Origin: an uncultured Spirochaetaceae bacterium
GTDB lineage: Bacteria; Myxococcota_A; UBA9160; UBA4427
Assembly: GCA_964474355.1 (NCBI GenBank)
Contig: CAYYSY010000312.1
Location: 1,517 to 65,516, forward strand
Length of the DNA stretch: 64,000 bases
Direction: 5' to 3'
Part shown: in pieces, positions 6,153 through 58,067 of the stretch
Layout of the letters: every line of letters starts with the position of its first letter
Numbering within the stretch: the stretch's first letter is position 1
Translations under genes and position numbers: made by a program
Notes under the pieces: model-generated
Seen by the model: only the letters and a program-made list of their open reading frames with translations
The model's database searches: none
Told to the model about the DNA's origin: nothing

Positions 6153-6156
6153 CTGA

Positions 6157-8379: not shown

Positions 8380-8405
8380 TTCCGAACGATGTAATTCCGA
8401 ACGAT
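8380..8405. promoter_or_regulatory. Direct repeat TTCCGAACGAT-GTAA-TTCCGAACGAT in the divergent intergenic region (candidate operator)
   Basis: Exact 11-mers lie at 8380-8390 and 8395-8405. A third core, CGAACGAT, lies at 8246-8253, and TCGAACGT lies near 8355. The region has locally lower GC. It sits between the outer-membrane-protein operon (minus) and the cytochrome operon (plus). Confidence 0.3.
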
Positions 8406-8581
8406 CTGCTGCGGATGAGCCCGGATCCTCGAGTGGGGAATTCTGCCCCGCCTCCGCCCCGATCCGCGTCGTATGCAGAAGGCCGCATGCATTGACTCTC
8501 GATCTCGACACCGATGAGCGAGCCACCGATGCAGCGGCGTCGAAAGGGCGCTGTACTCCCACCGGCAGCTCACACGCGCCG

Positions 8582-9514: not shown

Positions 9515-9536
9515 GCGTCGACGGTTGGCTTCGAAG

Positions 9537-38902: not shown

Positions 38903-39146
38903 GTCGTGGGGTCCTTGCTCCGCGACGCGCCGCCTGGACGCGCCGTCGAATCGCTGGGTTGAAGGGCGAGACGGGGGGCCTCGCACGGGCACGCGAATCT
39001 ACCCATTCCGACGGGAGCGGGCCAGTCGGGCCGCGGGTCGATTCGAGCACGCCGTGTGACGAGAGGCGGCGCGAGGAGGGCCGCGCAGGCGCCGCTGAAG
39101 CGGCCGCGCCCGGCCCGTGTCACGGGCCCGGGCGCGAAGCGCCGTC

Positions 39147-42230: not shown

Positions 42231-42595
42231 GTGGGGTGACTCTCCATGAACTTCATGGCCGCCGAGCGAGGGACTCTCGCGAGAGGCGACCTGGGAGCTG
42301 GGCGCCCGACTCCGAGATCCGAGCATCGAGCACTCGGCGTCGGCGACGGGACGCGGGACACGCCCGCCGGCTCGGGACGGGATCTTGGCCGTCCGGGCGC
42401 GTCGAGCGAGCCGCCCATGATGCCCGAAGGTGGGCCCGAGCGGGCGGCATCTTACCCGGGTTTGTGGCGCGTCGAGCCGTCGGGGTGTCGGAATCCCTCT
42501 GGGGTTTCAGAAGGACGCACTCCACGCGCAGCAGCCGCGGTGAGAGTCCGGTCGGGCTGCAGCCTTCGCATCCGAGCGGCGCGCCCCGCCGTGAA

Positions 42596-43564
42596 TCAGG
42601 GCTCCTCGTCGGACGCCGCCGCGTCGAGGACCTTGCGCCGCTGCCAGCGGTATTCGTCCTCGGTGATTCGTCCGGCCGTGCGCGCATCCTCGAGATCCGC
42701 GAGGTCGCGCAGATCCGAGGGCGAGAGGCGCTGCAGCTGCTCGTTCGTGAGCGGCTCGAGCTCGGTCAGCTCCTCTTCGGGCTCGGCCATCAGCACGGTC
42801 GTGCCGCCCGCCCCCGCGGCCCCGGCGTCGACTGGCGCCGTGCGCGCCGCCGATGCGGCGGCGAACGTGCCGAAGACGTCCGAGCTCCACTCGACGGCCA
42901 CGCCGGTCCTGCCCGACCGCCGTATGAAATCGTTCGTCACGACCCGGAACTTCTCCTGTGGGTCGTCGACGTGGGGCTTCGGCAGCCCGCCCTTGCGGTT
43001 CTCGTCGACCGGCCAGTCCGATCGCGACAGGTGGAAGACCAGGTCGTCCCCGTCCATGAATGCGACGAAGGACGTCAGGAACTTGCGATGGAAGATCCCC
43101 TTCTGTCGCTGCTTGCGCTGGGCACTGACGGCGATCCGCTGGCTCGAGTCGGCCCGGCGAAACGCCTCGGCCAGCCCCTGCGAGACCGGCCCGAGGATCT
43201 CTGCCGGGATCGCTGGGCCGCGCACGGTGTTGGCCCGCACGCGCCGGTCGATCTGAAGGCTGCCCAGGATGATCTCGAGCCGCTCGACCGGGATGTCGGA
43301 GGGGTGGGCGTAGCCGTGATCGATCGCGCTGCCAAAGCGCTTCTTCTCGCTGAGCAGGTGCACGTCGAGGCCGTAGCGGTTGATGATGCGGTCCTCGACC
43401 GTGCGGGTCGAACAGCCGACACCGCCGGTGAGGCCGAGGAGCACCACCAGGCAGGAGAGCAGCGCGAGTCGTCGCCTCCGCGGCGGCTGCGCGGGGCGTA
43501 GCGGTGCGGTGGGCGCTCGCGAGATGATCGGGCTCGGCCCGGAGGCGGGAGATCGTCGATGCAT
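42596..43564 (-). CDS. Putative lipoprotein with a C-terminal SHOCT-like motif
   Basis: ATG at 43564. Signal and lipobox-like sequence: LALLSCLVVLLGLTGGVGC. C-terminus: LADLEDARTAGRITEDEYRWQRRKVL. Confidence 0.55.
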   Translation of the reverse strand: MHRRSPASGPSPIISRAPTAPLRPAQPPRRRRLALLSCLVVLLGLTGGVGCSTRTVEDRIINRYGLDVHLLSEKKRFGSAIDHGYAHPSDIPVERLEIILGSLQIDRRVRANTVRGPAIPAEILGPVSQGLAEAFRRADSSQRIAVSAQRKQRQKGIFHRKFLTSFVAFMDGDDLVFHLSRSDWPVDENRKGGLPKPHVDDPQEKFRVVTNDFIRRSGRTGVAVEWSSDVFGTFAAASAARTAPVDAGAAGAGGTTVLMAEPEEELTELEPLTNEQLQRLSPSDLRDLADLEDARTAGRITEDEYRWQRRKVLDAAASDEEP

Positions 43565-43632
43565 GGCGCCGAGCTTAGCAGTCGCTCGCCGCGAGACGGT
43601 GCGAAGGGCGACTCCGCGGATGGGTCGGGCCC

Positions 43633-45513
43633 TCACGCGACGAGCGCCGCGACCACGCGATGCGTGACGAAGGCCGCCGCGTACGCCAGCACCAGCAGAT
43701 AGCTGAACGCGAACGCGGGCCAGCGCCACGAGTTCGTCTCGCGCGCCATGATCGCCAGTGTCGAGACGCACTGCAGCGCGAACACGAAGAAGACGAGCAG
43801 CGAGGCGACCGTCGGCGCGTCGAAGACGTGCCGCCCCGTCCGCGGATCGACGTCGCTCCGAATCGCGGCGCGCAGCGAGCTCTCCTCGTCGGTGGCAGCG
43901 TAGATCTGCGCGAGGGTCGCGACGATCACCTCTCGCGCGGCGAGGCTCGCGACGAGGCCGACGCCGATCTTCCAGTCGAAGCCGAGCGGCGCGATCAGCG
44001 GCTCGATCGCGTGGCCGACGTGTCCGGCGATGCTGTGCTCCAGCGCATACGACGCGGCGTGGCTCTCGTCGAGATCGGCCGGCGGCTCGACGCGCGGGAA
44101 CGTGAGAAGCACCCACAGCACCATCGAGGCCAGCAGGATGATCGTGCCCGCACGCTTGAGGAACGCCGACACGCTGTTCCAGACCTGCATGACCCACAGC
44201 TTCGCGGTGGGGATGCGATACGAGGGCAGCTCCATCACGAAGGGCATGGCGTCGCTGCGTGCGATGGTGCGCTTCAGCACGGCGGCGACGATCATTGCGA
44301 AGACCGGCGCGACGAAATAGAGGGCGAAGAGCACGAGCCCCTGCAGGCCGAAGACCCCGAGCACGGTGCGCGAGGGTACGAACGCGCCGATCAGCAGCGC
44401 GTACACCGGCAGCCGTGCCGAGCACGTCATCAGCGGCGCGACCAGCATGGTCACGAGCCGGTCGCGGGGTGAGGGGATCGTCCGCGTCGCCATGATGCCG
44501 GGCACCGCGCACGCATACGAAGACAGCAGCGCCACGAACGCGCGCCCCTCGAGCCCGATGCGGCCCATCGCGCGATCGACCACGAACGCGGCGCGGGCCA
44601 TGTAGCCGATGTCTTCGAGCAGGTAGAGCAGGCCGAACAGCAGCGTGATCTGCGGGACGAAGATCACGACCGAGCCGACACCGGCGATGAGCCCGTCGGC
44701 GACGAAGTCGCTGAGCAGGCCGGGTGGCAGGCCGCTCCGCGTTGCGGCCACCAGGGCGCCGACGCCGTCGTCGATCATGTCCATGGCCGGGCTCGCCCAC
44801 GCGAAGATCAGCTGGAAGAACGTCACCATGACGAGCGCAAAGAGCAGCGGGCCGATGAGCGGATGCAGCACCACGCGGTCGATCCGCTCGGTGAGCGTGT
44901 GCTCGCGAGGGCGCGACACCAGCACGTGGTCGAGGATCGAGCGGACCCAGGCCGCACGCTCTTCGGTGGTGTCGGGCGGCAGCAGCGGCGGCTTCGTCCA
45001 GGTGTCGGGCTCGGCAAGAAGCAGCTTCAGTCGATCGAGCCCGACGCCACGATGGCCGATGACTGGCAGCACCGGCACGCCGAGGGCCGCCTCGAGCCGC
45101 TCGAGGTCGATCTCGCCGCCGCGGGCCGCGAGCTCATCGAACATCGTGAGCACGAGGCAGGTCGGCTTCTCGCGCCGCAGCACCTGGCCGACGAGCAGCA
45201 GCGAGCGCTCGAGTGAGCACGCGTCGGCCACGACCACGAGGGCCTCCGGCACCTCGACGCCCTCGAGCTGTCCATCGAGCACCCGGGTCACGACCTCCTC
45301 GTCCGGGCTCAGCGGATCGAGGGAGTACGTGCCGGGGAGATCGATCACGCGCGCCGTGCGGGCGCCCAGCTGAACCCGGCCCTCCCGGCGCTCGACGGTC
45401 ACGCCGGGATAGTTCCCGACCTTGGCCCGCAGACCGGTCAGCGCGTTGAAGAGGGTCGTCTTGCCGGCGTTCGGACTGCCGACGAGGCCCAGCGTGAGCG
45501 TCGCTTCGCTCAA
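43633..45513 (-). CDS. feoB: Ferrous iron transporter FeoB
   Basis: TTG start. G-domain: LGLVGSPNAGKTTLFNALTG, DLPGTYSL. A polytopic gate domain follows. Confidence 0.93.
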   Translation of the reverse strand: MSEATLTLGLVGSPNAGKTTLFNALTGLRAKVGNYPGVTVERREGRVQLGARTARVIDLPGTYSLDPLSPDEEVVTRVLDGQLEGVEVPEALVVVADACSLERSLLLVGQVLRREKPTCLVLTMFDELAARGGEIDLERLEAALGVPVLPVIGHRGVGLDRLKLLLAEPDTWTKPPLLPPDTTEERAAWVRSILDHVLVSRPREHTLTERIDRVVLHPLIGPLLFALVMVTFFQLIFAWASPAMDMIDDGVGALVAATRSGLPPGLLSDFVADGLIAGVGSVVIFVPQITLLFGLLYLLEDIGYMARAAFVVDRAMGRIGLEGRAFVALLSSYACAVPGIMATRTIPSPRDRLVTMLVAPLMTCSARLPVYALLIGAFVPSRTVLGVFGLQGLVLFALYFVAPVFAMIVAAVLKRTIARSDAMPFVMELPSYRIPTAKLWVMQVWNSVSAFLKRAGTIILLASMVLWVLLTFPRVEPPADLDESHAASYALEHSIAGHVGHAIEPLIAPLGFDWKIGVGLVASLAAREVIVATLAQIYAATDEESSLRAAIRSDVDPRTGRHVFDAPTVASLLVFFVFALQCVSTLAIMARETNSWRWPAFAFSYLLVLAYAAAFVTHRVVAALVA

Positions 45514-45588: not shown

Positions 45589-45900
45589 TCACGCGTCGCT
45601 CGGGCTCTGCTCGACGCGGCGGCGCACCCAGATGCTCGCGGCGTCGCCTCGGCGCAGGCAGAGCCGATAGCCGCGCAGCGCGTACTCGGTGGGGTCGCCC
45701 AGCGGCGCTCGGCGAACGACGCGGATGATGGTGTCCGGCAGCAGGCCTAGATCGATGAGTCGGCGCCCCGCCGGCGCGCCCTCGTGGTCGACGTGGTCGA
45801 CGACGACCTCGGCTCCGGGACGCGCGCGATCGAGGGGGAAGGCGTCACCGACCCCTTCGGCCACGCTCGCGGCCGCCGACTCATTGAAATCCATTTTCAT
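45589..45900 (-). CDS. feoA: FeoA-family protein
   Basis: ATG at 45900. SH3-like sequence: RRLIDLGLLPDTIIRVVRRAPLGDPTEYALRGYRLCLRRGDAASIWV. It lies 75 nt upstream of feoB. Confidence 0.85.
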   Translation of the reverse strand: MKMDFNESAAASVAEGVGDAFPLDRARPGAEVVVDHVDHEGAPAGRRLIDLGLLPDTIIRVVRRAPLGDPTEYALRGYRLCLRRGDAASIWVRRRVEQSPSDA

Positions 45901-46015: not shown

Positions 46016-47029
46016 TCAGCGATCGTCGTCCTGCTCGCTCCGGAGCTGCCGGTTCATCAGCATCGTGCCCGCCCGCGCCGGCGTGACCTCGCCGTCGATC
46101 ACCCGCCGGACCAGCTCGCAGATCGGCAGCTCGACGCCGATGCGATCCGCCAACCGGCAGGCGGCCTGGGTCGTGCGCACGCCCTCGGCCACCTCGCCCA
46201 GGTCGCGGATGATCTCGTCGAGCTTCTGCCCGCGGCCGAGCGCGAGGCCCACCCGCCGGTTGCGCGACAGGTCACCGGTGCAGGTCAGCACGAGGTCGCC
46301 CATGCCCGAGAGTCCGTGCAGGGTGCTCCGGTCGGCGCCGAGCTTGTCGGCGAGGCGCGCGATCTCGGCGAGGCCGCGCGTCATGAGCGCGGCGCGGGTA
46401 TTGAGCGCGCCGTCCATGCCGTCGCTCATGCCGACCGCAATGGCGATCACGTTCTTGAGCGCGCCGCCGATCTCGACGCCCATCACGTCGCTGCTCGAGT
46501 AGCAGCGGAACCAGGGGCACGAGAGGTTCGCTTGAACAGCGATCGCGAACGTCTCCTCGCGGCAGGCGACGGTGACGACGGTCGCGCGCTGCTCGGCGAC
46601 CTCGCGGGCGAACGAGGGGCCCGACAGCACGACGATGCGCGGGTGATGGGCCTCGGGCAGCACGTCCTCGAGCACCTGGTGCATGGTCATGCCCGTGTCG
46701 TACTCGATGCCCTTCACCGTCGAGACCAGGATCGCGTCGGTCCCGATGAACGGCGCAGCCCGCGTCATCACCTCGCGGAGGCTCTGACTGGGCACCGCGA
46801 TGATCACCATCTCCGCGCCCTCGAGCGCCCGCTCGAGTGAGGACGTCGCCTCGATCGATGCCGGCAGCTCGAAGCCGGTCAGGTACTTCGGATTGCGGTG
46901 ATGGGTGTCGATGTGCGCGGCGGCCTTCTCCGACCGCGCCCAGAGACGCACCGGATTCTCTCGCGCACACAGGATCGCGAGGCACGTGCCGAAGCTGCCG
47001 GCACCGAGGACCGTGGTGGGGACGTTCAT
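46016..47029 (-). CDS. gpsA: NAD(P)H-dependent glycerol-3-phosphate dehydrogenase
   Basis: ATG at 47029 (MNVPTTVLGAGSFGTCLA). Sequences: GPSFAREV, GALKNVIAIAVGMSDG. The 230-aa upstream extension of the ORF is Arg-rich junk. Confidence 0.93.
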   Translation of the reverse strand: MNVPTTVLGAGSFGTCLAILCARENPVRLWARSEKAAAHIDTHHRNPKYLTGFELPASIEATSSLERALEGAEMVIIAVPSQSLREVMTRAAPFIGTDAILVSTVKGIEYDTGMTMHQVLEDVLPEAHHPRIVVLSGPSFAREVAEQRATVVTVACREETFAIAVQANLSCPWFRCYSSSDVMGVEIGGALKNVIAIAVGMSDGMDGALNTRAALMTRGLAEIARLADKLGADRSTLHGLSGMGDLVLTCTGDLSRNRRVGLALGRGQKLDEIIRDLGEVAEGVRTTQAACRLADRIGVELPICELVRRVIDGEVTPARAGTMLMNRQLRSEQDDDR

Positions 47030-47042: not shown

Positions 47043-47175
47043 CCACACATCGGGCGCCCTGCGGCGTGTGATCTCGTTGACGCTGCGGGGGGCCCACGCC
47101 CCGCGATGCATGATCTGATCCACACATCGGCGGTCTCCGCCCAGCGTGTGATCTCGTTGACGCTGCGGGGGGCCC
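47043..47175. repeat. Duplicated about 50-bp block (two copies, period 77-80 bp) in the gpsA / nuo-like divergent intergenic region
   Basis: CCACACATCGG occurs at 47043-47053 and 47120-47130. An exact 32-mer, GCGTGTGATCTCGTTGACGCTGCGGGGGGCCC, occurs at 47064-47095 and 47144-47175. Confidence 0.9.
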
Positions 47176-47185: not shown

Positions 47186-47361
47186 CGTGGGCGACGGCTC
47201 GCCGAGATCGCCGGCGTCGTCGCCCCCCTGAGCACCCCCCGGACCGAGCGTTCCGCATGCCGACCGTCGAACCCGACGGAGCCGGCGTCGTGCATGCGGT
47301 GACCGGAACGCCGGCCCAACGGGTCGAGCGGACGACCGGCCGACCTCGAGGAGGCGGGTGC

Positions 47362-47700
47362 ATGGGCGAGTACGCTGCGCTGCTGACACTGACCTCGGTC
47401 GGCGCACTCGTCGCCGGTCTCCTCGTGCTCTTCCACGTTCGCGTGAAGCCGCGCCGGCGCCGACGCGATGCATCGGGCGACCCGCCCGTCGACGTGCTCG
47501 CCGCCCTCGGCCGGTTCCAGACCTACGCCGCGCTCTTCGTCGCGTTCGGTGGGCTGGCCCTGCTGCTCGCCGCATGGGCCGCGCGGGTCGATGCTCTCGG
47601 CCGCGCCGGCCTCGGCATCGCGGCCCTCGTGACTGCCCCGCTGCTGGTCGGCTTCGCCCACTTGATCGCGCAGGGCGGCCTGGGGGACGACGACTCGTGA
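47362..47700 (+). CDS. NuoA-like (complex I subunit 3-like) 3-TM protein, degenerate
   Basis: ATG at 47362 with GAGGAGG 7 nt upstream. It has three TM helices and NuoA size. FVAFGGLALLLAAW stands where NuoA has F.IFDVEA..LF.W. There is no (Y/F)E(C/S)G motif. Confidence 0.6.
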   Translation: MGEYAALLTLTSVGALVAGLLVLFHVRVKPRRRRRDASGDPPVDVLAALGRFQTYAALFVAFGGLALLLAAWAARVDALGRAGLGIAALVTAPLLVGFAHLIAQGGLGDDDS

Positions 47701-48662
47701 GCACCGACGCCAGCGCATCCACCTCACTCCGACCGCCGCCCTGGCTCGATCGGATCGGACCCGCGTGGTGCGTCGTCGTCGCGGTCGCGAGCGTCGGCGT
47801 GATCCCGATGGGCTCGACCTATCTCGCGGGTGATCGGGCGATCTCGCTCGTCATCGCGGACCTCGATGGCTCTGCGCTGGTGCCCGCCGCGTTGGTCTGT
47901 CTGTCGGCGCTGGGCTTCGCCGCGATGGGCTGGTCGGTCCGCGACGCGGGCGCACGCCGGGCATGCCTCGGTGCTGGCGCGCAGACGCTCTCGTACGGCG
48001 TCGCCTTCGCGCTCGCCGTGCTGCCGCTGGCCCTCGTGCAGGGCTCGCTCGACCTCGTCGAGATCGTCGCGGGGCAGGACGCGACGTTCACGTTGGGCGA
48101 CGTCGCCGTGGTGCACGCGCTGCCCGTCCGTGAAGCCTGGCCCGCGTGGCCGAGCCTCCCGGCCTGGGGCCTGCTGCTGAACCCGCTCGCGGTCGTGCTC
48201 GTCACGATCTGCGGGCTCGGCGCGATGCGCCTGCCGCCCTTCGACGGTGTGGCGGCGGAGGCCGAGGCGCGCACCGCCCTGAACGCCGAGGGCAGCGGAC
48301 TGCGTCTCGGCAACGCAGTGATCGCCGACTTCGTCAACACGCTCGTGCTGGCGGGCCTGGTCGTCACGTTCGGGCTCGGTGGCTGGGCGATCCCCTGGCT
48401 CGCCGAGTCGGAGCTGCTCTCCGCGCTCGTGCGCGGCTACGGGCCGGGGCTCGGTACACTGCTCGGTGCCGGACTGCACGCAGGCAGCTTCGCACTCAAG
48501 CTCCTGCTCGTCTTCGTGCTGCTCCGCGCGGTCGGCCGCCGTTTCTCGCCCTTGTCCGAGTCGCGGATGAGCTTCCTCTGCTTCCGCCTCTTCGTGCCCC
48601 TCGCGATCGTCAACGTCTTCGTCACCGGCTACTGGCTGGTCGCGAGGCCGGGGCTCTCATGA
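47697..48662 (+). CDS. NuoH-like (subunit 1-like) membrane protein lacking the N-terminal TM1 and quinone-loop region
   Basis: The GTG at 47697 overlaps the previous stop (GTGA). Three segments align by eye to NuoH segments: IADLDGSAL...GWSVRD...GAGAQTLSYGV, MRLPPFDGVAAEAEA...AEGSG and TFGLGGW. There is no counterpart of the GPN..G..Q..AD..K loop. Confidence 0.65.
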   Translation: MSTDASASTSLRPPPWLDRIGPAWCVVVAVASVGVIPMGSTYLAGDRAISLVIADLDGSALVPAALVCLSALGFAAMGWSVRDAGARRACLGAGAQTLSYGVAFALAVLPLALVQGSLDLVEIVAGQDATFTLGDVAVVHALPVREAWPAWPSLPAWGLLLNPLAVVLVTICGLGAMRLPPFDGVAAEAEARTALNAEGSGLRLGNAVIADFVNTLVLAGLVVTFGLGGWAIPWLAESELLSALVRGYGPGLGTLLGAGLHAGSFALKLLLVFVLLRAVGRRFSPLSESRMSFLCFRLFVPLAIVNVFVTGYWLVARPGLS

Positions 48663-49189
48663 CCGCAGCGACCACCACCTTCCACCTGCTCGCCGCGGCC
48701 ACCCTGCTCGGCGCCCTCGTGCTGATCTTCGGCGCACGGTCGACGGTGGGGGCCGCCCTCGGCGCGGTGGGCTCGTCCATTGCGGTGGCCGGGCTCTTCG
48801 CGTTGCTCTCGGCGCCCTTCCTCGCGATTGCGCAGCTGCTGCTCGTCGTCGGTGCCGGGCTCGTGGGCCTGCTCTTCGTGGTGCTGCTCGTCGATCTCGA
48901 CTCGGAGCGCCTGCCCGCGCGCTCGGTGCGGCGACGTGTGGTGAATGGTCTGGGGGTCATCGCTGCGGCCTCGCTCGCGGGCATCGTCGTGCTCACGCTC
49001 GAGAGCACCGATCGGCCGGATCTGCCCGTCGATGCGGCGGTCGGTGGTCTCTTCTCGCTCGGTGAGACGCTCTACCGCGAGTTCGCGGCCCCGCTCGTCG
49101 GCCTGTCGCTCGTACTGCTGACCGGGCTCGTCGCGAGCCGCGTGCTGGCCGGTGTCGACGCCGGTGACACCCACGAGGGAGAGCGCTGA
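48659..49189 (+). CDS. NuoJ-like (subunit 6-like) membrane protein
   Basis: ATGA overlap with the previous gene. APFLAIAQLLLVVGAGLVGLLFVVLLV parallels NuoJ A.F.A.LEI.VY.GAI.VLF.FVVM. Confidence 0.6.
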   Translation: MTAATTTFHLLAAATLLGALVLIFGARSTVGAALGAVGSSIAVAGLFALLSAPFLAIAQLLLVVGAGLVGLLFVVLLVDLDSERLPARSVRRRVVNGLGVIAAASLAGIVVLTLESTDRPDLPVDAAVGGLFSLGETLYREFAAPLVGLSLVLLTGLVASRVLAGVDAGDTHEGER

Positions 49190-49527
49190 TGGTCTCCGTC
49201 GATCAGGTCGTCGGGCTCGCCATCGCCCTCTTCGCCATCGGGCTCGTGGGTGCGATCCGCCGCCGTCACGTCGTGGTCGTGCTCTTCGCCCTGCAGCTCG
49301 TGACGATCGCTGCCGCGCTCGCGTTCGTCGGCTTCAATCGCATGTGGGCGGGGCGCGCCCTCGCCGCGGGTGATGCGGCGGGGCTCGAAGGGCAGGCCTT
49401 CGCCTTCGTCGTGCTCGTGGTCGGGGTCGTGCAGCTGCTCGTGGGGATCGGGCTCGCCCTCGCCGTCCTGCGCCGCCGCGGCTCGGCCGACGTGGATGAC
49501 GTGAACCTGCTCGGGAGCTCGAGATGA
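49189..49527 (+). CDS. NuoK-like (subunit 4L-like) membrane protein with both conserved TM Glu replaced by Gln
   Basis: TGATG overlap with the previous gene. GLAIALFAIGLVGAIRRRHVVVVLFALQLVTIAAALAFV and AFVVLVVGVVQLLVGIGLALAVLRRRG align to E. coli NuoK ...LIGLEIMINASALAFV / ...[20 protein letters not shown]. Confidence 0.75.
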   Translation: MVSVDQVVGLAIALFAIGLVGAIRRRHVVVVLFALQLVTIAAALAFVGFNRMWAGRALAAGDAAGLEGQAFAFVVLVVGVVQLLVGIGLALAVLRRRGSADVDDVNLLGSSR

Positions 49528-51569
49528 GCCCGACCGAGACGGCCGCGCTGGCGTGGATCCCCGCTGCGCCCCTCTTCGTGGCGCTGGCATTCGGTCTCGC
49601 AAGCGGGCTGCTGCGGCGCAACCTCTCCGATCGAAACGTCGCCGCCATCACGTCCGCTGGCTTCGCCGTGTCCGCGCTGCTGAGCGTGATCTTCTTCGCG
49701 AGGCTCGTCGGCGGCGGGCTCGTCACGCCGATCGTCGAGCGCTCGGGCAGCTGGTTCGGGCTCGGCGTCGGCGCGGAGGCCCTCGACGTGGCCTTCGTGC
49801 TCCGGCTCGATCCGCTCTCGTCGTTGCTCTGTGTGCTGGCGAGCTTCATCGGGCTCGCGATCCAGCTGCACGCCGGCGTCCACATGTCGCGCAGCGATCA
49901 CGAGGACGGTGGGCTGCAGCGATTCTGCGCGCACTCGAGCGCGCTGCTCGCGTCGGTGCTGCTCTTCGTGCTGGCGGACGACATGGTGCTCGCGTTCGCC
50001 GCCTGGGTGTCGTGTGGGCTCTTCACGCGGCTGCTCGTCGGCTTCTGGTACAGCGAGGCCGATCGCACCGCGGCGTTGCAGAAGGTCTCGCTCAGGCAGC
50101 GTGCGGGCGACGCGTTCTTCCTCGCTGGTCTGCTCAGCGTCTTCTGGCAGCTCGTCGACGGTGGCGGCGCTGATCTCTCGTGGTCGAGCCTGCGCGCGGC
50201 GAGTGACACGCTGCTCGCCTCATCACCAGAGGCGGGCGACGGCGAGGCGGCGGCGGTGTGGACGCCCGCGGTCTTCACGGGTCTGCTCTTCGTGCTCGCT
50301 GCCGCGTCGCGCCTCTTCGTGCTCCCGTTCATGTTCGGTCTGCGCGCTGCGTCGGTGGCGCCTTCGCCCGCGTCGGCGCTGATCCAGTCGGTGGCCATGC
50401 CCTGCACCGGCATCCTGCTGCTGGTGCGTGTCTCGTTCCTCATCGAGGCGGTGCCGCTGCTCGAGACGACGCTCTGCTGGGTCGCGGGCCTGGGCGCCCT
50501 GATCTTCGTGCTCGCTTCGCTCACCGAGGACGACGGGCGTCAGATCCTCACGTGGTCGACCGCGAGCCAGCTCTCGATCGCGGCGCTGGCCGTCGGGCTC
50601 GGCGCCTACGACGTCGCGCTCTTCTTCGTCGTGGCGCATGCGTGCGCCAAGGCGCTGCTGATTCTCGGCGTCGCCACCGCGAGCAAGGCGCGGGGGCACG
50701 AGCACGATCGCAAGAAGCTCCAGCCGCTCGGCCTCGCCATGGTCTGGCCCCAGGCCTTCATGCTGATCGGGGGGCTCACGCTGGCCGGTCTGCCACCGAC
50801 GATCGCGTTCTTCTCGATCGAGCAGGTGCTCGACGCCGCCGACCGCGCCGAGGCGCTGCCGGGCCATCTCGTGCTCTGCGGCGTCGTGCTGGTGACCGTC
50901 TTCTTCACCGCGCTGTCGATGATCCGTCTCTACTACATCGTGTTCCCGGTGCGCTCGTCCTTCGATCCCGCGCGCCGCCGCCTGCAGTGGGAGCCGCATG
51001 GCCCCTCGCTCTGGAGCCTCGGCGCGCTCGCCGTGCTCTGCGTGTTCGGGGGCGTCATCGGCGTGTCGCAGATCTTCGGCGACCCGTTCGAGATCGAGCA
51101 GATGAACAGCCTCTCGGCCTTCTTCGAGCCGGTGCTGCCCGACGCGCATCCGCCACGCACCGAGCCCGGGCGGCAGACGATGTGGATCGCGCTGCAGGTG
51201 CTCGCCATGGCTGCCGGCAGCGTCGCCGGCCGTGCGCTCTTCCGCGGGCGCGCGGAGCCGATCCTCGATCTCCGCAATCGACTGCGCGGCCCCGCGCGCC
51301 GCGTCGTGCAGGCGTTCGATCCCGACAACGTGTTCGGCTGGCTGGTCATCGCGCCGAGCTCGGCCGTGGCGCGGGGGCTCGCGCGCGGGCCTTTCGGTGA
51401 GCGGCTCCTCGTGTGGCTGCTCGACACCGCGCCCTCCGGCCTGGCGATGTGGCTCGGCGGTCTGCTCGACCGCCACGGTCAGTCGGGGCAGACGCAGGGT
51501 GTGCTGGCGTCGATGCTCGTGGGCGCCGTGTTGATCGTGCTCGGCCTCACGCTCGGCGGGGTGCTCTGA
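49524..51569 (+). CDS. NuoL-like (subunit 5-like) antiporter-type membrane protein, degenerate
   Basis: ATGA overlap with the previous gene. LRLDPLSSLL, FVLADDMVLAFAAWVSCGLFTRLLVGFWY (compare L.LGWEGVGL.SYLLIGF.Y), PSPASALIQSVAMPCTG (compare PTPVSALIHAATMVTAG), TWSTASQL, HACAKALL. A long C-terminal extension is present. Confidence 0.75.
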   Translation: MSPTETAALAWIPAAPLFVALAFGLASGLLRRNLSDRNVAAITSAGFAVSALLSVIFFARLVGGGLVTPIVERSGSWFGLGVGAEALDVAFVLRLDPLSSLLCVLASFIGLAIQLHAGVHMSRSDHEDGGLQRFCAHSSALLASVLLFVLADDMVLAFAAWVSCGLFTRLLVGFWYSEADRTAALQKVSLRQRAGDAFFLAGLLSVFWQLVDGGGADLSWSSLRAASDTLLASSPEAGDGEAAAVWTPAVFTGLLFVLAAASRLFVLPFMFGLRAASVAPSPASALIQSVAMPCTGILLLVRVSFLIEAVPLLETTLCWVAGLGALIFVLASLTEDDGRQILTWSTASQLSIAALAVGLGAYDVALFFVVAHACAKALLILGVATASKARGHEHDRKKLQPLGLAMVWPQAFMLIGGLTLAGLPPTIAFFSIEQVLDAADRAEALPGHLVLCGVVLVTVFFTALSMIRLYYIVFPVRSSFDPARRRLQWEPHGPSLWSLGALAVLCVFGGVIGVSQIFGDPFEIEQMNSLSAFFEPVLPDAHPPRTEPGRQTMWIALQVLAMAAGSVAGRALFRGRAEPILDLRNRLRGPARRVVQAFDPDNVFGWLVIAPSSAVARGLARGPFGERLLVWLLDTAPSGLAMWLGGLLDRHGQSGQTQGVLASMLVGAVLIVLGLTLGGVL

Positions 51570-51606
51570 TGCGGGGCCCGATGCATGCGCTGGGGGGGGT
51601 GCTCTG

Positions 51607-53319
51607 ATGCAGGGGGTCTCGCTCTCACCCGGCGTCTTCCTCAGCGCGCTCGTGGTGGCGCCTCTCGTCGTCGCGGCGTTCGTGCTCGTGCTGCACGTCG
51701 CGATCGCCCGCGCCGTCGGACGAGATCGGGTGCCCAAGACGCTCTGGCGTCGGATCGGTCTCTCCGCCTCGGCGTTGCAGCTCGTCGTGGGAGGGGGATG
51801 GCTCTGGTCGAGCTTCGATCCCGAAGCCCTGGGTCCGCAGCTCGTCGGACGCTGGGAGTGGCTGCCCCAATACGGCTTCCACTTCCACTTCGCGATCGAC
51901 GGGCTCTCGCTCTTCCCGGTGCTGCTCGTGCTCTTCGTCGTGCCGGTGGCATGCTGGTCCACGCCCTCGAAGGCGGAGCGATTCACCGCCGGTGCGGTCG
52001 CGCGGGTGCTCGCCGTGCAGTCGGGCGTGCTCGGCGTGCTGCTCTCGGTGAACGTGATGCAGCTGCACCTGTTCTGGACCTTGCTGCTGCTGCCGACCTT
52101 CTTCGTGATCGTCAGCTGGGGCGGGCCGCGGCCGATGCGCTCGGCGTTCAGCTGGCTGGTGCCCGCGGCGCTCGGCAGCGCGCTGATGCTCTTCGTGTTG
52201 ATCGTCGTGCACCGTCTCGGCTACGAGCAGCTGCACGTCTGGGTCTTCGATCTCGTGAGCGGTCGTGGAAACGGTGCACCGGGTCTGCTCGACGTCGTCG
52301 TGCCGGTCCATGGGCCGCAGTCGACGCTCTTCGTGGCGCTGCTCGCGGCGGTCGCCATGCGGATGCGGGCCTTCCCGTTCCACGTGTGGTCGTCGACGGC
52401 GACCGAGCATGCGCCGCCCGACGGCTTCGTCCTGCTCGACGTGCTGCAGGGCGTGGTCGGCGTCTACATCGTGGTGCGCGTCGGCCTGCCGCTCCTGCCG
52501 GAGGGCGCGGCCTCGGTGGCGCCGTGGATGAGCGTCATCGCCGTCGTCGGGCTCGTCTACGGCGCACTGGTCGCCGGTGCGCAGCACGATCTGCGCCGCT
52601 TGCAGGCGTACGCGCAGACCGCCGCGCTCGGTCTCGTCACCTTGGGTGTGTTCACGCTCGCCGAGCACGGTCTCGTCGGTGCGCTGATCCATGGCTGGAG
52701 CGTGGCGCTCGCGAGCTCGGCCGTGCTCGTGCTGGTCGGCCTGCTCGTCGACCGCCGGGCGTCGACCGAGCTCTCCGACTACGGCGGGCTCTCGAAGCCG
52801 ATGCCGGTCTTCTCGCTCCTCTTCGCCGTGTCGCTCTTCGCTTTCTCGGGCATACCCGGGACGCTCGGCTTCGTGGGCGAGCTGCTCGTGCTTGCCGGTG
52901 GGTTCGCGCGCTCGCCGGGCCTGGCGCTCGTCGCGCTGCTCGGTGTGCTGATCTCGGGTGCGTGTCTGCTGCGCGCCTATCGCGAGGTGGCGCTGGGGCC
53001 CGTCGAGAATCCCGAGAACAGGGGGCTCATCGATCTCGGCTGGAGCGAGCGCGCGGGCGTGCTCGCGCTGCTGCTCCCCGTGATCGTGCTCGGCGTGCAT
53101 CCGAACCCGATGCTGCGGCGGGTCGAGCCGGCCGTGCTCGAGGTGCTGCACGTGATGGAGCTGCGGAGTGCGCTGGCCACCGACGCGGAGCTGCCGGGGG
53201 ACGCTGACGCGCAGCTCGGCGCCGTGTCGGCCGGGGAGCCGAATCATTCCGATCCCGAAGCGGGCAGCGCGCGACCATCGCCGGGCTCGCAGCTTGCCCG
53301 CGCGGCGGAGGCGCCCTGA
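51607..53319 (+). CDS. NuoM-like (subunit 4-like) antiporter-type membrane protein, degenerate
   Basis: FAIDGLSLFPVLL; LHLFWTLLLLPTFFVIVSWGG (compare FFFWE..L.PMYFLI..WG); AMRMRAFPFHVWS (compare FAVKMP..P.H.WLPDAH); GIPGTLGFVGELLVL. Confidence 0.75.
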   Translation: MQGVSLSPGVFLSALVVAPLVVAAFVLVLHVAIARAVGRDRVPKTLWRRIGLSASALQLVVGGGWLWSSFDPEALGPQLVGRWEWLPQYGFHFHFAIDGLSLFPVLLVLFVVPVACWSTPSKAERFTAGAVARVLAVQSGVLGVLLSVNVMQLHLFWTLLLLPTFFVIVSWGGPRPMRSAFSWLVPAALGSALMLFVLIVVHRLGYEQLHVWVFDLVSGRGNGAPGLLDVVVPVHGPQSTLFVALLAAVAMRMRAFPFHVWSSTATEHAPPDGFVLLDVLQGVVGVYIVVRVGLPLLPEGAASVAPWMSVIAVVGLVYGALVAGAQHDLRRLQAYAQTAALGLVTLGVFTLAEHGLVGALIHGWSVALASSAVLVLVGLLVDRRASTELSDYGGLSKPMPVFSLLFAVSLFAFSGIPGTLGFVGELLVLAGGFARSPGLALVALLGVLISGACLLRAYREVALGPVENPENRGLIDLGWSERAGVLALLLPVIVLGVHPNPMLRRVEPAVLEVLHVMELRSALATDAELPGDADAQLGAVSAGEPNHSDPEAGSARPSPGSQLARAAEAP

Positions 53320-53321
53320 AC

Positions 53322-54797
53322 GTGCTCGACGCGATCCCGCGCTGGGACGTCTTCGGCCCCGTCCTGTACGTCACGGTCGGCGCGCTCGTGGCGCTGCTCG
53401 TCGACGGCGCGGCGTCCGTCCGGCGCCGCCGCGGCGTGGGCGCGGGATCACCTTCGCGCCGCGGCCCGCTGCTCGCACTGACGAGCTCGATCGCGCTCGC
53501 TGCGGTCCTGTTGTCGGCGTGGGGCTCGCTCGTCGGTTCGGTGGAGCCGGCCTTCGACACGCGCACCGGTCTCTTCATCGTCGATCGGCTGACGAGCGTC
53601 GGCACCCTGATTCTCGCCTCGGCTGCACTCGTGACGCTCTGGCTCTCGGTGACGATGCTGTCGGTGGCGCGGCTCGAGCAGGGCTCGTTCCACGCGCTCG
53701 TGCTGCTCGCATCAGCGGGGATGTTCGTCGCCATCGGCAGCGGCCACCTTGCGTTCCTCTACGTGGGCCTCGAGCTCGCCTCGCTGTGCCTGTCGCTGTT
53801 GGCCGCGTACGACGGGCGCCGCGCCGCGAGCCTCGAAGCCGGACTCAAGCTGCACCTGATGGGCGGCTTCGCGAGCGGAATCATGCTCTTCGGCATGGCG
53901 CTGCTCTACGGCGCCACGGGTGAGCTCCGCTATGGCGCGCTCTGGGCGGCACTCGACGGCTCGGACTGGCTCGGGCTGGCGGGGCTCGGGCTCCTGCTCT
54001 GTGGGCTGCTCTTCAAGCTCGCCGTCTTCCCGTTCCACCAATGGGTGTCGGACGTGTTCGAGGGCGCGCCGGCATTCGCATCCGGCTATCTCGCCGTGGC
54101 GATGCCCACCACGGCCGTGATCGTGCTGCTCAGGCTGCTCGACGAGGCGATCCCGGCGGGTTTCGCGCCGGTGCCCGAGCTGCTGAAGGTCCTCGCGGTG
54201 GCGAGCATCGTGGTGGGACACGGACTCGCGCTCGTCGCACGATCGGTGAAGCGCATGCTCGCCTGCGCGGGGATCGCGCACTCGGGTCACCTTGCGCTGG
54301 GGCTTGCGTGCTCTTCGACCGAGGCGTTCGAGGCCGTGCTCTTCTACGTGTTCGTGTACGCGTTCATCGCGCTCGGCGCGCACGGCCTCGCCGCTTCGAT
54401 GGCGCACGGCGGGCGCGAGATCGAGACCACCGACGACTTCGCCGGGCTCGCGGGGGTGCGCCCCGTGGCCGCAGTGGCGTTGTCGATCTTCCTGCTCGCG
54501 CTCGCGGGCCTGCCCGGAACCGGCGGCTTCTGGGCGCTCTACAACCTCTTCTCGGCCGCGGTGGCCGAAGGTGCGATGCTGCCGGTCGTGGTTGCGCTCA
54601 TCGGCGTCGGTGTGTCGTGGCGCTATCTGCTCGCGATCCCGGTGGCGATGTTCACGCGGCCTGCGCCCCGGGGCGGCACCACGGCGCTCTCGACGGCGGA
54701 GGTCGTCGTGCTCGGGCTCTGCACGGCCGTCGTGCTCTATCTGGGCTGGCGCCCTGCGCCGGGGCTCGCCGACGTGCTGAGTGGGCTGGTGCGTTGA
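53322..54797 (+). CDS. NuoN-like (subunit 2-like) antiporter-type membrane protein
   Basis: GTG start. LYVGLELASLCLSLLAAY, SLEAGLKLHLMG, MLFGMALLYGATG, GLLFKLAVFPFHQWVSDVFEGAP, CAGIAHSGHLAL. It is the best-conserved subunit of the set. Confidence 0.8.
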   Translation: MLDAIPRWDVFGPVLYVTVGALVALLVDGAASVRRRRGVGAGSPSRRGPLLALTSSIALAAVLLSAWGSLVGSVEPAFDTRTGLFIVDRLTSVGTLILASAALVTLWLSVTMLSVARLEQGSFHALVLLASAGMFVAIGSGHLAFLYVGLELASLCLSLLAAYDGRRAASLEAGLKLHLMGGFASGIMLFGMALLYGATGELRYGALWAALDGSDWLGLAGLGLLLCGLLFKLAVFPFHQWVSDVFEGAPAFASGYLAVAMPTTAVIVLLRLLDEAIPAGFAPVPELLKVLAVASIVVGHGLALVARSVKRMLACAGIAHSGHLALGLACSSTEAFEAVLFYVFVYAFIALGAHGLAASMAHGGREIETTDDFAGLAGVRPVAAVALSIFLLALAGLPGTGGFWALYNLFSAAVAEGAMLPVVVALIGVGVSWRYLLAIPVAMFTRPAPRGGTTALSTAEVVVLGLCTAVVLYLGWRPAPGLADVLSGLVR

Positions 54798-54807: not shown

Positions 54808-56781
54808 TCAGCCCCGTCCGCGCGGCACTCGCACGTCGCCGCGGCGGCGCGTCACCTGCAGCTCGTCGAAGAGCTCCATGAGTGGCATCGCAGTACGGCG
54901 CGTCGTTCCGATGAGGGTCTTGTAGGCCTGGGTGCCGATCTCGCCGTGCTCGTCGAGATGGGCGACGAGCCGGGCTCGAAGTCCATCGATGGCCTCGCGG
55001 TCGAACCAGAGATCGCCGGGCGCCCGCACGAGCACGTCGCTCCGTTCGAGGTGGGCGACGAGGTCGCGGTACTCGGGCAGCTCGATGCCGAGCGCGGCGC
55101 AGTGATCGCGTGGGCTCATGGGCTCGAGCCCCGCTTCGCGCGCGTCGGATGCGATGCGATCGACGAGCGCCTTCGTGCGCTCGTCGAGGGTCGGGGCGTG
55201 GCCGCTCGTCCGGACGAGCTCGCCTTCGACGACGACCCGGCCGGTGCGCTCCTGCATCGCGAGCGCCGCCTCGGCGGTATCGCGGGTGACGTTCTCGGGC
55301 AGGGTGGCGCGCAGCGCGGCGCCGGGCATGCCGGGGCGAAGGGGCTCGCGCTGGTGGAAGGCCTCGAGCGCCTCGAGCAGGCGCAGCCCCAGCCGCTCGA
55401 GGGTGGTGGCGTCGACCAGGCGCCGCGCATCCGTGCGGGCGATGCGGTCTTCTGCCTCGAGTGCACTCGCGACTGCGTCGACCTCGCTCGCGTCGAGGCC
55501 GGTCTCGAGAGCGAGCTCATCGACGAGGACGCCGCCGAGACCGCTGCGCGACACCCTCGATGCCACGGCCTCGCTCGAGTCGAACGTGGCGAGCACTTCG
55601 AGCTCGGCGGCCAGCGCCGGGTCGCTACGGCGCCGGTGCGGCGGTGCGACATCGACGAAGCGGCCGCCTCCGAGCGTGTGCCCGACGAGGTCGTGGCGCG
55701 CGAAGCCACGCACGACGAAGCGGTCGCCCGGGAGCACGGCGATCGGCGGCCCATCGACGTGGAGCCGCGCGAAGCCCGCTTCGCCCGGGCGAAGCCTCGC
55801 GTCGACACCGATCGGCGCGAGCCGGCCACGGCGCTCGCACGTGCCGCAGAGCAGCTCGACCGCGATGACGTCCTTCTCCTCGGGCGAGGTGTCGAGCCAG
55901 TGGATGCGGACGTCCGCGAGCGTCGTCGTCGGCATGCGTCCGGGGCGGGTCAGCACCTGACCACGGGCGAGGTCCTCGTGCGCGACGCCCTGTACGTTCA
56001 CGGCGCAGCGCGCGCCCGGCAGCGCGCGCTCGGTCGGCTCGCCGTGATGCTGGAGCCCGCGGATCCGCGCGGGCTCGCCGCCCGGTAGCAGCTCCACCGC
56101 ATCGCCCACCTCGAGCGCGGAGCCCACGAGGGTGCCGGTCAGCACCGACCCGAAGCCGCGCATCGTGAACACGCGGTCGACGTTCAGCCGCGGCGGACCC
56201 GCCCTCGGCGTGCGCGGCGCGGCCTCGGCGCAGACGCGCGCGAGCGTCTCGCGCAGCGCGTCGATGCCCTCGCCGGTCTGCGAGGACACCGTGACGACGG
56301 GTGCATCGGCCAGGCTCGTCCCGGCAACGAGGTCGGCCACCTCGGCCGCGGCGAGCTCCTGCATCTCGTCGTCGACGAGATCGCAGCGGGTCAGTGCGAC
56401 GATGCCGTGCCGCACGTCGAGCAGGTTGCAGATCGCGAGGTGCTCGCGGGTCTGGGGCATGACGCCTTCGTCGGCGGCGACCACGAGCAGCACGACGTCG
56501 ATGCCGGTGGCGCCCGACACCATCGTGCGGACGAGCCCTTCGTGGCCGGGCACGTCGACCAGGCCGACGCGTTCGCCGCCGGGCAGCTCGAGCGGCGCGA
56601 AGCCGAGATCGATGGTGATGCCGCGCGCCTTCTCCTCGGGCAGGCGGTCGAGGTCGAGCCCGGTGAGCGCGCGGACGAGCGAGGTCTTGCCGTGATCGAT
56701 GTGGCCCGCGGTGCCGACGACGAGGGGAGCGCGCGCGGCGTCGTCTCCCGCTCGCTGCCCCGCGTTCGTACCTTTCACCAC
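54808..56781 (-). CDS. selB: Selenocysteine-specific translation elongation factor
   Basis: GTG start. G1: [29 protein letters not shown]3: DVPGHE. About 657 aa, with a long C-terminal winged-helix-type extension typical of SelB. Confidence 0.88.
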
Positions 56782-56792: not shown

Positions 56793-58067
56793 TCAGCGCG
56801 GGCCGATCCGGTCGCGGCCCATGTAGGGCTGGAGCGCCTGGGGGATGTGCACGCTGCCGTCCGCCTGCTGGTGGTTCTCGAGCAGGGCGAGGATCGCGCG
56901 CGCATTCGAGATCGCCGTGCCGTTCAGCGTGTGGACCAGCTCGTTCTTCTTGCCACCCTCACGGCGGAAGCGGATCTTGAGGCGCCGCGCCTGGTAGTCG
57001 GTGCAGTTCGACGTGCTCGTGATCTCGCCCCAGTCGCCGCCTTCGCCCCGGCCGGGCATCCACGCCTCGAGGTCGAACTTGCGGTAGGCCGGCGAGCCGA
57101 GGTCGCCTGCCGCGACGTCGATGACGCGGTACGGCACCTCGAGGGCGTCGAAGATCTTCTCCTCGATGCGGCGTAGCTCTGCGTGCTGCGCCTCGCTGTC
57201 CTCGGGGCGGCAGAAGACGAACATCTCGGTCTTCGTGAACTGGTGCACGCGATAGAGCCCGCGGCTCTCGCGGCCATGTGCGCCGGCCTCGGTGCGGAAG
57301 CAGTGCGAGATGCCCGCGAGCCGGAGCGGCAGGCCGGCCTCGTCGAAGATGTGGTCGGCGTACAGGCCGCCGAGGGTGATCTCGGCCGTGCCGACGAGGC
57401 AGAGCTCGTGACCTTCGATGGAGTAGATCTGCGTCTCTTCACCCTTCGGGTTGAAGCCGAGGCCGCGCACGACGTCGGGGCGGGCGAGGTCGGGCGTCAC
57501 GACGGGCGTGAACTGCTCCTCGAGCAGCACGTCGAGAGCGAAGCGCTGCAGCGCGACCTCGAGCAGCGCGGCCTCGTTCTTCAGGTAGTAGAACTTCTGG
57601 CCGGCGACGCGTGCAGCGCTCTCGAAGTCGACGAGATCCCACCTCTCGCAGATCGCGAGGTGATCGACGGGCTCGAAGTCGAAGCTCGTGGGCTTGCCGT
57701 CGGCGAGGACGGCGAAGTTTGCCTCACCGCCTTCGGGCACGTCGGGGTGAGTGTGATTCGGCACGCCGGCCAGCGCCTCGTCGAAGCGCGTCTGCGCGGC
57801 ACGGAGCCGCTCTTCGATCGCCGCGAGGTCATCCTTGAATGCGCGCCCTTTGGTGACGTGGGCCTCGCGCTCGGCGTCGCTCATCTTGCGCTTGCCGGCC
57901 TTCTGGTGCTCGTTGCGCTGGCGGTTGGTCTCGTTCTGCTCGGTGACGAGCGCAGTCACCTCGCCGTGCAGCGCAGCCAGCGCGTCGATGTCGACGGTGA
58001 CACCGCGCTTGCGGCAGCTGTCCAGGATGTCGTCCCGGCGGTCGGCGAGGGAGTGAGGGTCGATCAT
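56793..58067 (-). CDS. serS: Seryl-tRNA synthetase
   Basis: An N-terminal coiled-coil arm is present. Class II motifs: HCFRTEAG, GLYRVHQFTKTEMF, TLNGTA. Its stop lies 11 nt before the selB start. Confidence 0.95.
   Translation of the reverse strand: MIDPHSLADRRDDILDSCRKRGVTVDIDALAALHGEVTALVTEQNETNRQRNEHQKAGKRKMSDAEREAHVTKGRAFKDDLAAIEERLRAAQTRFDEALAGVPNHTHPDVPEGGEANFAVLADGKPTSFDFEPVDHLAICERWDLVDFESAARVAGQKFYYLKNEAALLEVALQRFALDVLLEEQFTPVVTPDLARPDVVRGLGFNPKGEETQIYSIEGHELCLVGTAEITLGGLYADHIFDEAGLPLRLAGISHCFRTEAGAHGRESRGLYRVHQFTKTEMFVFCRPEDSEAQHAELRRIEEKIFDALEVPYRVIDVAAGDLGSPAYRKFDLEAWMPGRGEGGDWGEITSTSNCTDYQARRLKIRFRREGGKKNELVHTLNGTAISNARAILALLENHQQADGSVHIPQALQPYMGRDRIGPR

Follow-up and report, generated by a model that had tools for sequence, protein, structure and literature searches.

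The stretch of DNA analysed here (the window, 64 kb in length) carries, at 47362-54797 on its plus strand, seven intact open reading frames (ORFs) homologous to NuoA, NuoH, NuoJ, NuoK, NuoL, NuoM and NuoN, the membrane subunits of respiratory complex I. By position, this operon is orthologous to a canonical nuoA-EFG-HJKLMN operon, from which it arose at that locus by a deletion that took nuoE, nuoF, nuoG and the start of nuoH. Key Glu, Lys and His residues of the proton pathway have been replaced in the proteins that remain, while the genes themselves stay under purifying selection, and the same depletion runs, with intermediate forms, through a family far wider than the close relatives of the window. 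What is left may be a membrane arm that no longer pumps.

Origin of the operon by deletion at a conserved locus

The seven genes stand in the order A-H-J-K-L-M-N and are closely packed, as a sequence-only reading of the window had described: the first four junctions are overlaps (GTGA, ATGA, TGATG and ATGA) and the genes at the last two stand 37 and 2 nt apart. No internal stop interrupts any of them, and their GC content at third codon positions (GC3, 0.82-0.91) is like that of other real genes in this window of 70% GC. Pfam and NCBIfam place all seven. The placement is weak for the A-like gene (47362-47700, 112 residues), whose match to Oxidored_q4 (E=3e-4) lies below the cut-off; all of its PDB matches are NuoA or NdhC, BLASTP against the NuoA of the canonical relative L013 gives E=5e-7, and it is the first gene of the operon, as in relatives. 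The H-like gene (47697-48662, 321 residues) covers positions 66-297 of the NADHdh profile and encodes transmembrane helices (TM) 2 to 8 only. It is followed by the J-like gene (48659-49189, 176 residues; Oxidored_q3, E=1.6e-17, and E=1e-9 by BLASTP against the L013 NuoJ) and the K-like gene (49189-49527, 112 residues; Oxidored_q2, E=5.9e-16). The L-like protein (49524-51569, 681 residues) spans the NuoL model and has the C-terminal extension that makes up the lateral helix: its residues 18-672 align onto 8-626 of the 630 positions of TIGR01974 (NDH_I_L; 250.7 bits, cut-off 407.5), and the alignment with Thermus thermophilus Nqo12 reaches residue 587 of 606. Every NCBIfam equivalog model scores under its curated cut-off, including TIGR01770 for the N-like protein (53322-54797, 491 residues; 309 bits, cut-off 332.6), and the sole NCBIfam model passed is that of a subfamily, TIGR01972 (NuoM), with 303 against 263.8 bits for the M-like protein (51607-53319, 570 residues).

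Could these simply be subunits of an Mrp antiporter or an Mbh-type complex? This identity, which the sequence-only reading had itself raised, was checked and ruled out: NuoA and NuoH are present, the best models are those of NDH_I L, M and N with the Mrp models far below them, and the window holds no MrpE/F/G-type Pfam match.

The origin of the operon becomes apparent from its flanks. On the left lie gpsA (46016..47029, minus strand), divergent from the operon, then feoA (45589-45900, minus) and feoB (43633-45513, minus), all three recognised by Pfam; on the right, selB (54808-56781, minus), convergent with the operon, and serS (56793-58067, minus) were identified from their ORFs; gpsA and selB had already been named from the letters alone. 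In L013, a contig of the NCBI assembly GCA_028285625.1, the order is feoB-feoA-gpsA, then nuoA-nuoE-nuoF-nuoG-nuoH-nuoJ-nuoK-nuoL-nuoM-nuoN, then selB-serS, and L002 has the same left flank and nuo operon. The window and L001 (OZ252299.1, a 6.25 Mb Myxococcota chromosome) carry those flanks around A-H'-J-K-L-M-N, H' being the truncated nuoH. It is this two-sided synteny with L013 that makes the window operon the positional orthologue of the canonical one. More broadly, the left-flank order feoB-feoA-gpsA is common to L001, L002, L013, L018 and L020, and the right-flank order selB-serS to L001, L007, L013, L017 and L020.

Compared with the canonical operon, the window is without ~3.7 kb, comprising nuoE, nuoF, nuoG and ~70 codons from the start of nuoH. 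The deletion junction lies at 47697..47700 (plus strand), where the tetranucleotide GTGA holds both the stop of the nuoA-like gene and the GTG with which the truncated nuoH-like gene starts. When NuoE, NuoF, NuoG and the N-terminal part of NuoH from canonical relatives were used as tblastn queries, neither the window nor its close relative L001 showed any remnant of them. Likely genes over the 64 kb were called by codon-position GC and then scanned with Pfam, and neither the operon nor the 39 further ORFs yielded a NuoB, NuoC, NuoD, NuoI, NuoE, NuoF or NuoG. The absence of all these subunits, pointed out from the sequence alone, therefore holds across the window; that of NuoB, NuoC, NuoD and NuoI is, however, nothing peculiar to it. 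In canonical relatives too, nuoB, nuoC, nuoD and nuoI sit away from the nuoA-EFG-HJKLMN locus, and their absence from the window is thus ancestral and uninformative on the rest of the genome.

Several other loci resemble stages on the way to this architecture. L017 has cleanly lost nuoE and nuoF, and retains a frameshift-split nuoG (residues 4-138 at 4464-4823 and residues 141-510 at 4909-5949, in two frames), the result of either genuine pseudogenisation or an indel in the assembly; its nuoH is nearly full-length, with a 20-residue loop deletion, and its pump residues are partly depleted. L018 and L019 are without nuoE, nuoF and nuoG, and have a full-length nuoH with recognisable TM1-2 loop motifs; their nuoJ is frameshifted (L018 11170-11674, L019 alike), the N-terminal half standing in one frame and the C-terminal 93 residues in another, in two independent assemblies from different samples. 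L020, a marine Tara Oceans contig of 61% GC, carries the same seven genes and truncated nuoH between the same flanks; its NuoM is found in NCBI as 'NuoM family protein [Myxococcota bacterium]' and also as 'hypothetical protein [Spirochaeta sp.]'. Lastly, L021 holds J-K-L-M-N only (7032-13005), with no NuoA or NuoH, in an unrelated neighbourhood of a 257-kb contig of 71% GC, and is depleted as well: Glu to Thr in TM5 and Lys to Arg in TM7 of NuoM, Glu to Gln in TM5 of NuoL, and Gln for the second Glu of NuoK.

The window clade has derived characters in common with these loci, namely a loop insertion in NuoK (L017, L018 and L020), Pro for the TM8 Lys of NuoN (L017), Gln for a His of NuoL (L017 and L020) and Arg for the TM7 Lys of NuoL (L017). 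At the same time, lineages have lost different residues. The first Glu of NuoK is kept in L017 and the second in L018, and this second position is Gln in the window, L001, L017 and L021, His in L007 and Tyr in L020. Because derived characters are common to the window clade and to L017, L018 and L020, the loss of residues probably began in a common ancestor after loss of the N-module, the NADH-oxidising part of complex I encoded by nuoE, nuoF and nuoG, and went on in parallel thereafter.

Depletion of the proton pathway under purifying selection

Each protein was aligned to complex I chains from the PDB and to canonical Myxococcota homologues, and most of the substitutions proposed in the sequence-only reading were upheld. 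In the NuoK-like protein both membrane Glu positions are occupied by Gln, in comparison with the chains of Mycobacterium smegmatis, T. thermophilus and cyanobacteria, and a 10-residue loop insertion, WAGRALAAGDAA, is present that is also found in intermediate forms. The FD(V/L)E motif of NuoA has become FGGL, exchanging the Asp and Glu of TM2 for Gly and Leu; beyond what had been noticed, a 12-residue deletion in the TM1-2 loop takes out the E-P-(F/Y)-E-C-G motif. The NuoH-like protein is indeed missing TM1 and the TM1-2 loop of the quinone cavity, and its SYE has become SYG; its acidic TM5-6 loop is changed in part, with PFD...E..E (PFD and two Glu) retained. For NuoJ the earlier claim did not stand: the change from ALEII to AIAQLL had been taken as a loss, whereas Gln is the normal residue here in cyanobacterial NdhG and in canonical Myxococcota NuoJ. 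The changes in the NuoJ-like protein are instead Val for the Tyr of VYxGA in TM3 and Ser for a Glu upstream of it.

The three antiporter-like subunits are affected to differing extents. The NuoL-like protein has lost the TM5 Glu (WEGVG to WVSCG, Glu to Val), the TM7 Lys (to Arg) and the TM8 His (LIH to LIQ, His to Gln), all three as predicted, as well as the TM12 Lys, now Ile; the His and Lys of TM11 are retained, and neither these nor the Ile had been remarked upon. In the NuoM-like protein the TM5 Glu has become Thr, the TM7 Lys Arg and the Asp of WLPDAH Thr, and two His are lost too; the TM8 Lys is also gone, as had been proposed, but its replacement is Val or Gly and not Gln, and the TM12 Glu, passed over in that account, is kept together with the His of PFH. 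The NuoN-like protein, against Escherichia coli NuoN, has lost the two later Lys (TM8 to Pro, TM12 to Leu) and keeps the early motifs with the TM5 Glu and TM7 Lys, in agreement with the first description. In many cases the replacement resembles the original residue but is a poor proton exchanger (Glu to Gln, Lys to Arg, His to Gln). This pattern is not due to chance, since all seven key residues of NuoM are present in 103 of 111 other NuoM homologues, and six of the seven are lost in nine members of the clade. Nor does it extend to the canonical relatives: L002 has every canonical residue and L013 nearly all (SYA for SYE in NuoH), from which we take the losses to be specific to the window group. 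As a separate observation, two NuoM homologues on short contigs, P0046 and P0054, have Gln for the TM5 Glu, Met or Val for the TM7 Lys and Gly or Asp for the TM12 Glu.

How widespread is this depleted form? A genome scan using the clade alignment found the close clade in only one species-representative GTDB genome, OZ252299.1, and the sole match of a metagenome scan with the same alignment was an identical JGI contig. The back-translated patterns of these scans were too specific for the wider family, which was revealed by an exhaustive search of 1.84 billion representatives and reaches far beyond the close clade. Among 151 aligned NuoM sequences, all seven key residues are present in 63 and three or more are lost in 33, the commonest replacements being Arg for the TM7 Lys (25) and Gln for the TM10 His (25), which keep the shape of the side chain and remove ready proton exchange. 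A neighbour-joining tree puts the window NuoM-like protein in a group of 25 representatives of 50% identity clusters, 22 of which have lost at least three of the seven residues; the tree is rough, and long-branch attraction could inflate this group. The family thus comprises ~22 clusters at 50% identity, its members being 22-37% identical to one another. Within the clade there are nine M-like clusters. The H-like proteins fall into 17 clusters (53-100% identity), in which the full-length ones measure 303-329 residues and are all equally truncated, and two fragments are shorter.

The genes of the clade are nonetheless maintained. The ratio of non-synonymous to synonymous substitution rates (dN/dS, by the Nei-Gojobori method) between the window and L001 is 0.16 for A, whose protein is 78% identical to that of L001, 0.38 for H, 0.27 for J, 0.19 for K, 0.21 for L, 0.28 for M and 0.14 for N, to be set beside 0.29 for selB, 0.15 for serS, 0.25 for gpsA, 0.19 for feoB and 0.32 for feoA. 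Over all clade pairs the ratio ranges from 0.12 to 0.51 (L 0.12-0.34, M 0.23-0.46), values that are approximate, since dS is near saturation in these GC3-rich genes, and nowhere near 1. For the N-like gene it is 0.12-0.51 over all pairs and 0.14-0.31 among full-length genes, the values above 0.46 coming from the 166-codon fragment of L016. Purifying selection on the clade genes is as strong as on the flanking housekeeping genes. When dN is divided by that of gpsA, the clade gives 0.7-1.9 and the canonical pair L002/L013 gives 1.0-2.2, so these genes are as tightly constrained as those of a working complex I. No frameshift or internal stop was found in members of the window clade, across which the arrangement A-H-J-K-L-M-N is conserved, and the N-like protein has 491 residues in five of the five members with a complete gene, aligning without internal gap over 490 columns in every pair. 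A sudden divergence on the branch leading to the clade was also considered, an idea tempered by the canonical membrane subunits, which are themselves fast relative to gpsA; such acceleration as there is remains modest, with little in L, M and N and about two-fold in A, H and J. The oddity of these proteins is which residues have changed, and not how many.

Fold retention points the same way for NuoH. For the H-like protein, AlphaFold2 modelling with homologues from the clade and from canonical operons gives a predicted local distance difference test score (pLDDT) of 87.6 and a predicted template-modelling score (pTM) of 0.86, and the top Foldseek matches of the model are NdhA, NuoH and ND1 (template-modelling scores 0.65-0.77); as modelled, the protein keeps the TM2-8 fold. 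The TM5-6 loop (residues 171-205), with its invariant PFD and Glu, is more conserved within the clade (0.82-0.86) than the protein as a whole (mean 0.73).

Possible roles of the retained membrane arm

The seven proteins would still be expected to assemble into a complex I membrane arm, considering that NuoL keeps its long C-terminal clamp region and NuoH its TM2-8 fold. Lacking an N-module, a complete quinone cavity and any continuous proton wire, such an arm would presumably be unable to pump protons, and a role as a scaffold or in docking is what we infer in its place. We posit, with doubt and confidence evenly balanced, that it is a pseudoenzyme complex, a non-pumping membrane scaffold on which the conserved NuoH loop docks a partner encoded outside the operon. 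In such a scenario, the ~3.7 kb deletion removed the NADH-oxidising module together with the first ~70 codons of nuoH, and with that module the normal input of electrons; the quinone cavity was dismantled as the portions of NuoH and NuoA that build it went; the chain of Glu, Lys and His was broken in every subunit; and purifying selection would now hold the remaining seven-subunit arm as a scaffold, the PFD...E..E of the cytoplasmic NuoH loop offering a docking surface for a partner that is not in the operon. The broader proposition, that in a diverse family within Myxococcota the whole membrane arm of complex I was turned into a dead 'pseudo-complex' and kept for a task outside bioenergetics, for example in organising the membrane or docking a partner, is one that we entertain with doubt slightly the heavier. 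In the words of the sequence-only reading, the module was 'maintained, repurposed': its maintenance is demonstrated and decay was rightly doubted, the genes being intact in every clade member seen with dN/dS like that of the flanking genes, whereas repurposing is a deduction.

Several points weigh against this pseudoenzyme interpretation. Besides the approximate nature of the dN/dS values, the frameshifted nuoJ of L018 and L019 suggests that some lineages are letting the module decay. The conserved TM5-6 loop of NuoH, the TM5 Glu and TM7 Lys of NuoN and the TM12 Glu of NuoM could reflect a residual function linked to ions or redox chemistry, and a Q-module (NuoB, NuoC, NuoD and NuoI) encoded elsewhere in the genome may still bind the arm. 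Furthermore, expression, assembly, the loss of pumping and the docking partner are all predictions from sequence.

A Q-module encoded elsewhere is the main rival of this interpretation, and would make of this system a quinone reductase that pumps weakly or not at all and takes its electrons from a donor other than NADH, the shedding of pump sites allowing it to run on a low driving force. In its favour, nuoB, nuoC, nuoD and nuoI lie off this locus in canonical relatives as well, and complex-I-like enzymes without NuoEFG are both common and functional (PMC4453560; PMC12361115). In complex I the PFD...E..E loop is part of the lining of the quinone cavity; here it is invariant and belongs to one of the most conserved regions of the H-like protein. 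L018 has full NuoH TM1-2 loop motifs, and L017 a nuoG. In the window clade, however, both walls of the quinone cavity are breached, NuoH being without TM1 and the TM1-2 loop and NuoA without E-P-(F/Y)-E-C-G, and the Glu of SYE in NuoH and the Asp and Glu of NuoA are lost as well. No gene for NuoB, NuoC, NuoD or NuoI lies within the 64 kb. As for the 6.25 Mb relative OZ252299.1, no NuoF can be attributed to it among the best 120 matches, which are saturated by other Myxococcota at 77% identity or more, and no second, non-degenerate NuoH or NuoM from it is among the matches listed. Taken together, we regard a Q-module-driven reductase as unlikely, with binding of a Q-module more plausible at loci like L017 and L018 than at that of the window.

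Perhaps, then, the remodelled channels have acquired a new and redox-independent transport function, with an anion or another solute passing the Arg that replaced Lys? Mrp and the NuoL-like proteins of CO2-uptake systems function without a redox arm. The replacements are also patterned, with the same TM7 and TM10 exchanges recurring across the 151 NuoM sequences and Gln taking the place of the second NuoK Glu in the window, L001, L017 and L021, and the TM12 Glu of NuoM, the TM5 Glu of NuoN and the TM11 Lys of NuoL are always retained. On the other hand, no subunit offers a continuous polar path, several of the positions now being Val, Ile, Leu, Pro or Gly; no gene for a substrate-binding or accessory protein is linked to the operon; and the TM5 position of NuoM varies within the clade (Thr, Leu or Phe), which speaks against a specific new binding site there. 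We hold such transport to be very doubtful.

That the genes are remnants without function, decaying into pseudogenes after complex I was lost, might be read from the deleted input module, the missing catalytic residues, the frameshifts in nuoJ of L018/L019 and nuoG of L017, and a 70% GC genome that keeps long frames open by chance (with many spurious ORFs), but it is a most improbable explanation and largely refuted by dN/dS values equal to those of housekeeping neighbours in every clade pair, by the intactness of all clade genes though neighbouring proteins are 64-86% identical (selB 64%, window and L001 against L007), by the survival of this architecture in lineages with a serS of only about 70% identity, and by fixed protein lengths and retained translational coupling.

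Surroundings of the operon and comparison with known systems

Upstream of the operon, a putative ribosome-binding site, GGAGG (47349..47353, plus strand), can be read 8 nt 5' of the A-like start codon, and a scan for promoters and terminators in the upstream region gave no consensus-level match. The region between gpsA and the nuoA-like gene contains an exact 30-bp direct repeat, GTGTGATCTCGTTGACGCTGCGGGGGGCCC, at 47066-47095 and 47146-47175 (80 bp apart), where no such repeat is expected by chance; it holds a -35-like hexamer, TTGACG. The repeat may represent a duplicated promoter or operator, and is missing from the orthologous region of L001.

Further to the left, a 344-residue ORF without Pfam match and with a lipoprotein-like N-terminus (LTGGVGC) occupies 42596-43630 (minus). 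An ORF of 219-316 residues, likewise without Pfam match and known by position only, also stands between an LPG-synthase/sulfatase gene and feoB in L001, L018 and L020. In the window the former gene (39147-42506, minus) encodes a 1119-residue fusion of LPG-synthase-TM and sulfatase domains and belongs to the synteny block with those three loci; at the edge of the L017 locus only a partial LPG-synthase fragment is seen. Upstream of feoAB are also a THAP4/nitrobindin-like haem-binding beta-barrel (38342-38998, minus) and a cytochrome P450 (36021-37286, plus). More distant still, two adjacent multihaem cytochrome c genes with c7/c3-type domains (9249-11144 and 11072-12244, plus) suggest that electrons are transferred in the periplasm or outside the cell by an organism in which the nuo operon at this locus is without electron-input genes. 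A large ankyrin-repeat protein with about eight Ank_2 units and a Sel1 repeat (2858-5104, minus) adjoins a fusion of a ferredoxin domain with a pyridine-nucleotide-disulphide oxidoreductase (4839-6356, minus).

Where does the operon stand amongst described systems? The literature that could be searched gave us no account of a conserved nuo operon reduced to its membrane arm or depleted of charge, in keeping with what had been suspected from the sequence. With respiratory complex I (NDH-1, NuoA-N) it has seven subunits in the same order, direct orthology, the NuoH fold and a full-length NuoL in common. It differs in the absence of the N-module, of a Q-module within 64 kb, of complete NuoH and NuoA, and of an unbroken proton pathway in any part; measured against what makes a complex I, the membrane subunits are there, whilst NuoE, NuoF and NuoG, a complete NuoH, the key residues of NuoL, NuoM, NuoN, NuoK and NuoA, and scores above the equivalog cut-offs are not. 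Databases label the proteins as 'NADH-quinone oxidoreductase subunit M/H' (JGI names), and metabolic reconstructions could therefore credit Myxococcota with complex I subunits from an operon unable, on its own, to encode a working complex I.

The 11-subunit complex-I-like enzymes (cyanobacterial NDH-1, archaeal Fpo and the Campylobacter type) have likewise lost the NADH-oxidising module and kept the membrane arm. Such 'C-I-like' variants without NuoEF(G) are widespread, and other incomplete complex I sets have been treated as probable assembly artefacts (PMC4453560; PMC12361115). These enzymes, however, possess NuoB, NuoC, NuoD and NuoI, a complete NuoH, all pump residues and a replacement input partner, whereas the arm encoded in the window is truncated and depleted. 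Mrp antiporters and Mbh/Mbx modules offer another parallel, as modular sets of NuoL/M/N-, NuoK- and NuoJ-like subunits free of a redox arm; Mrp is nevertheless made of MrpA/D with MrpB, MrpE, MrpF and MrpG, retains the conserved Lys and Glu, and has no NuoA or NuoH, both of which the window has. In the NuoL/NdhF-like proteins of CO2 uptake (NDH-1MS with CupA; DabAB), antiporter-like subunits have taken on a task outside respiration together with a partner that docks. These proteins need their proton-pathway residues and a linked carbonic-anhydrase-like gene, and the window has neither: no partner domain of the CupA/ChpY or DabA kind was found by Pfam among its ORFs. The system is clearly derived from complex I, and yet lacks what defines complex I, the 11-subunit type, Mrp/Mbh and the CO2-uptake modules alike.

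Regardless of the role of the retained arm, its implications reach to complex I itself. How this enzyme couples quinone chemistry to pumping ~200 Å away is debated, and the argument rests on the chain of Glu, Lys and His and on the NuoH and NuoA loops. Nearly all of these elements have here been removed by nature while the seven proteins stay under selection. The loci form a natural mutagenesis series, in which nuoE and nuoF were lost, then nuoG, then TM1 and the loop of NuoH, with pump residues that differ by lineage, and such a series tells the residues that folding and assembly require apart from those that catalysis requires. That the arm persists would imply a non-pumping role, and bears on membrane-arm subcomplexes elsewhere and on the recycling of modular bioenergetic machines.

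A further comparison, conceptual and without any claim of homology, is with pseudoenzymes. They too have exchanged their catalytic residues, often for similar ones, and have remained under purifying selection with fold and length preserved. Most of those known are individual soluble proteins, whereas the window encodes a seven-subunit membrane machine; if our interpretation is true, it would be the first case of a respiratory pump turned into a multi-subunit membrane pseudoenzyme.

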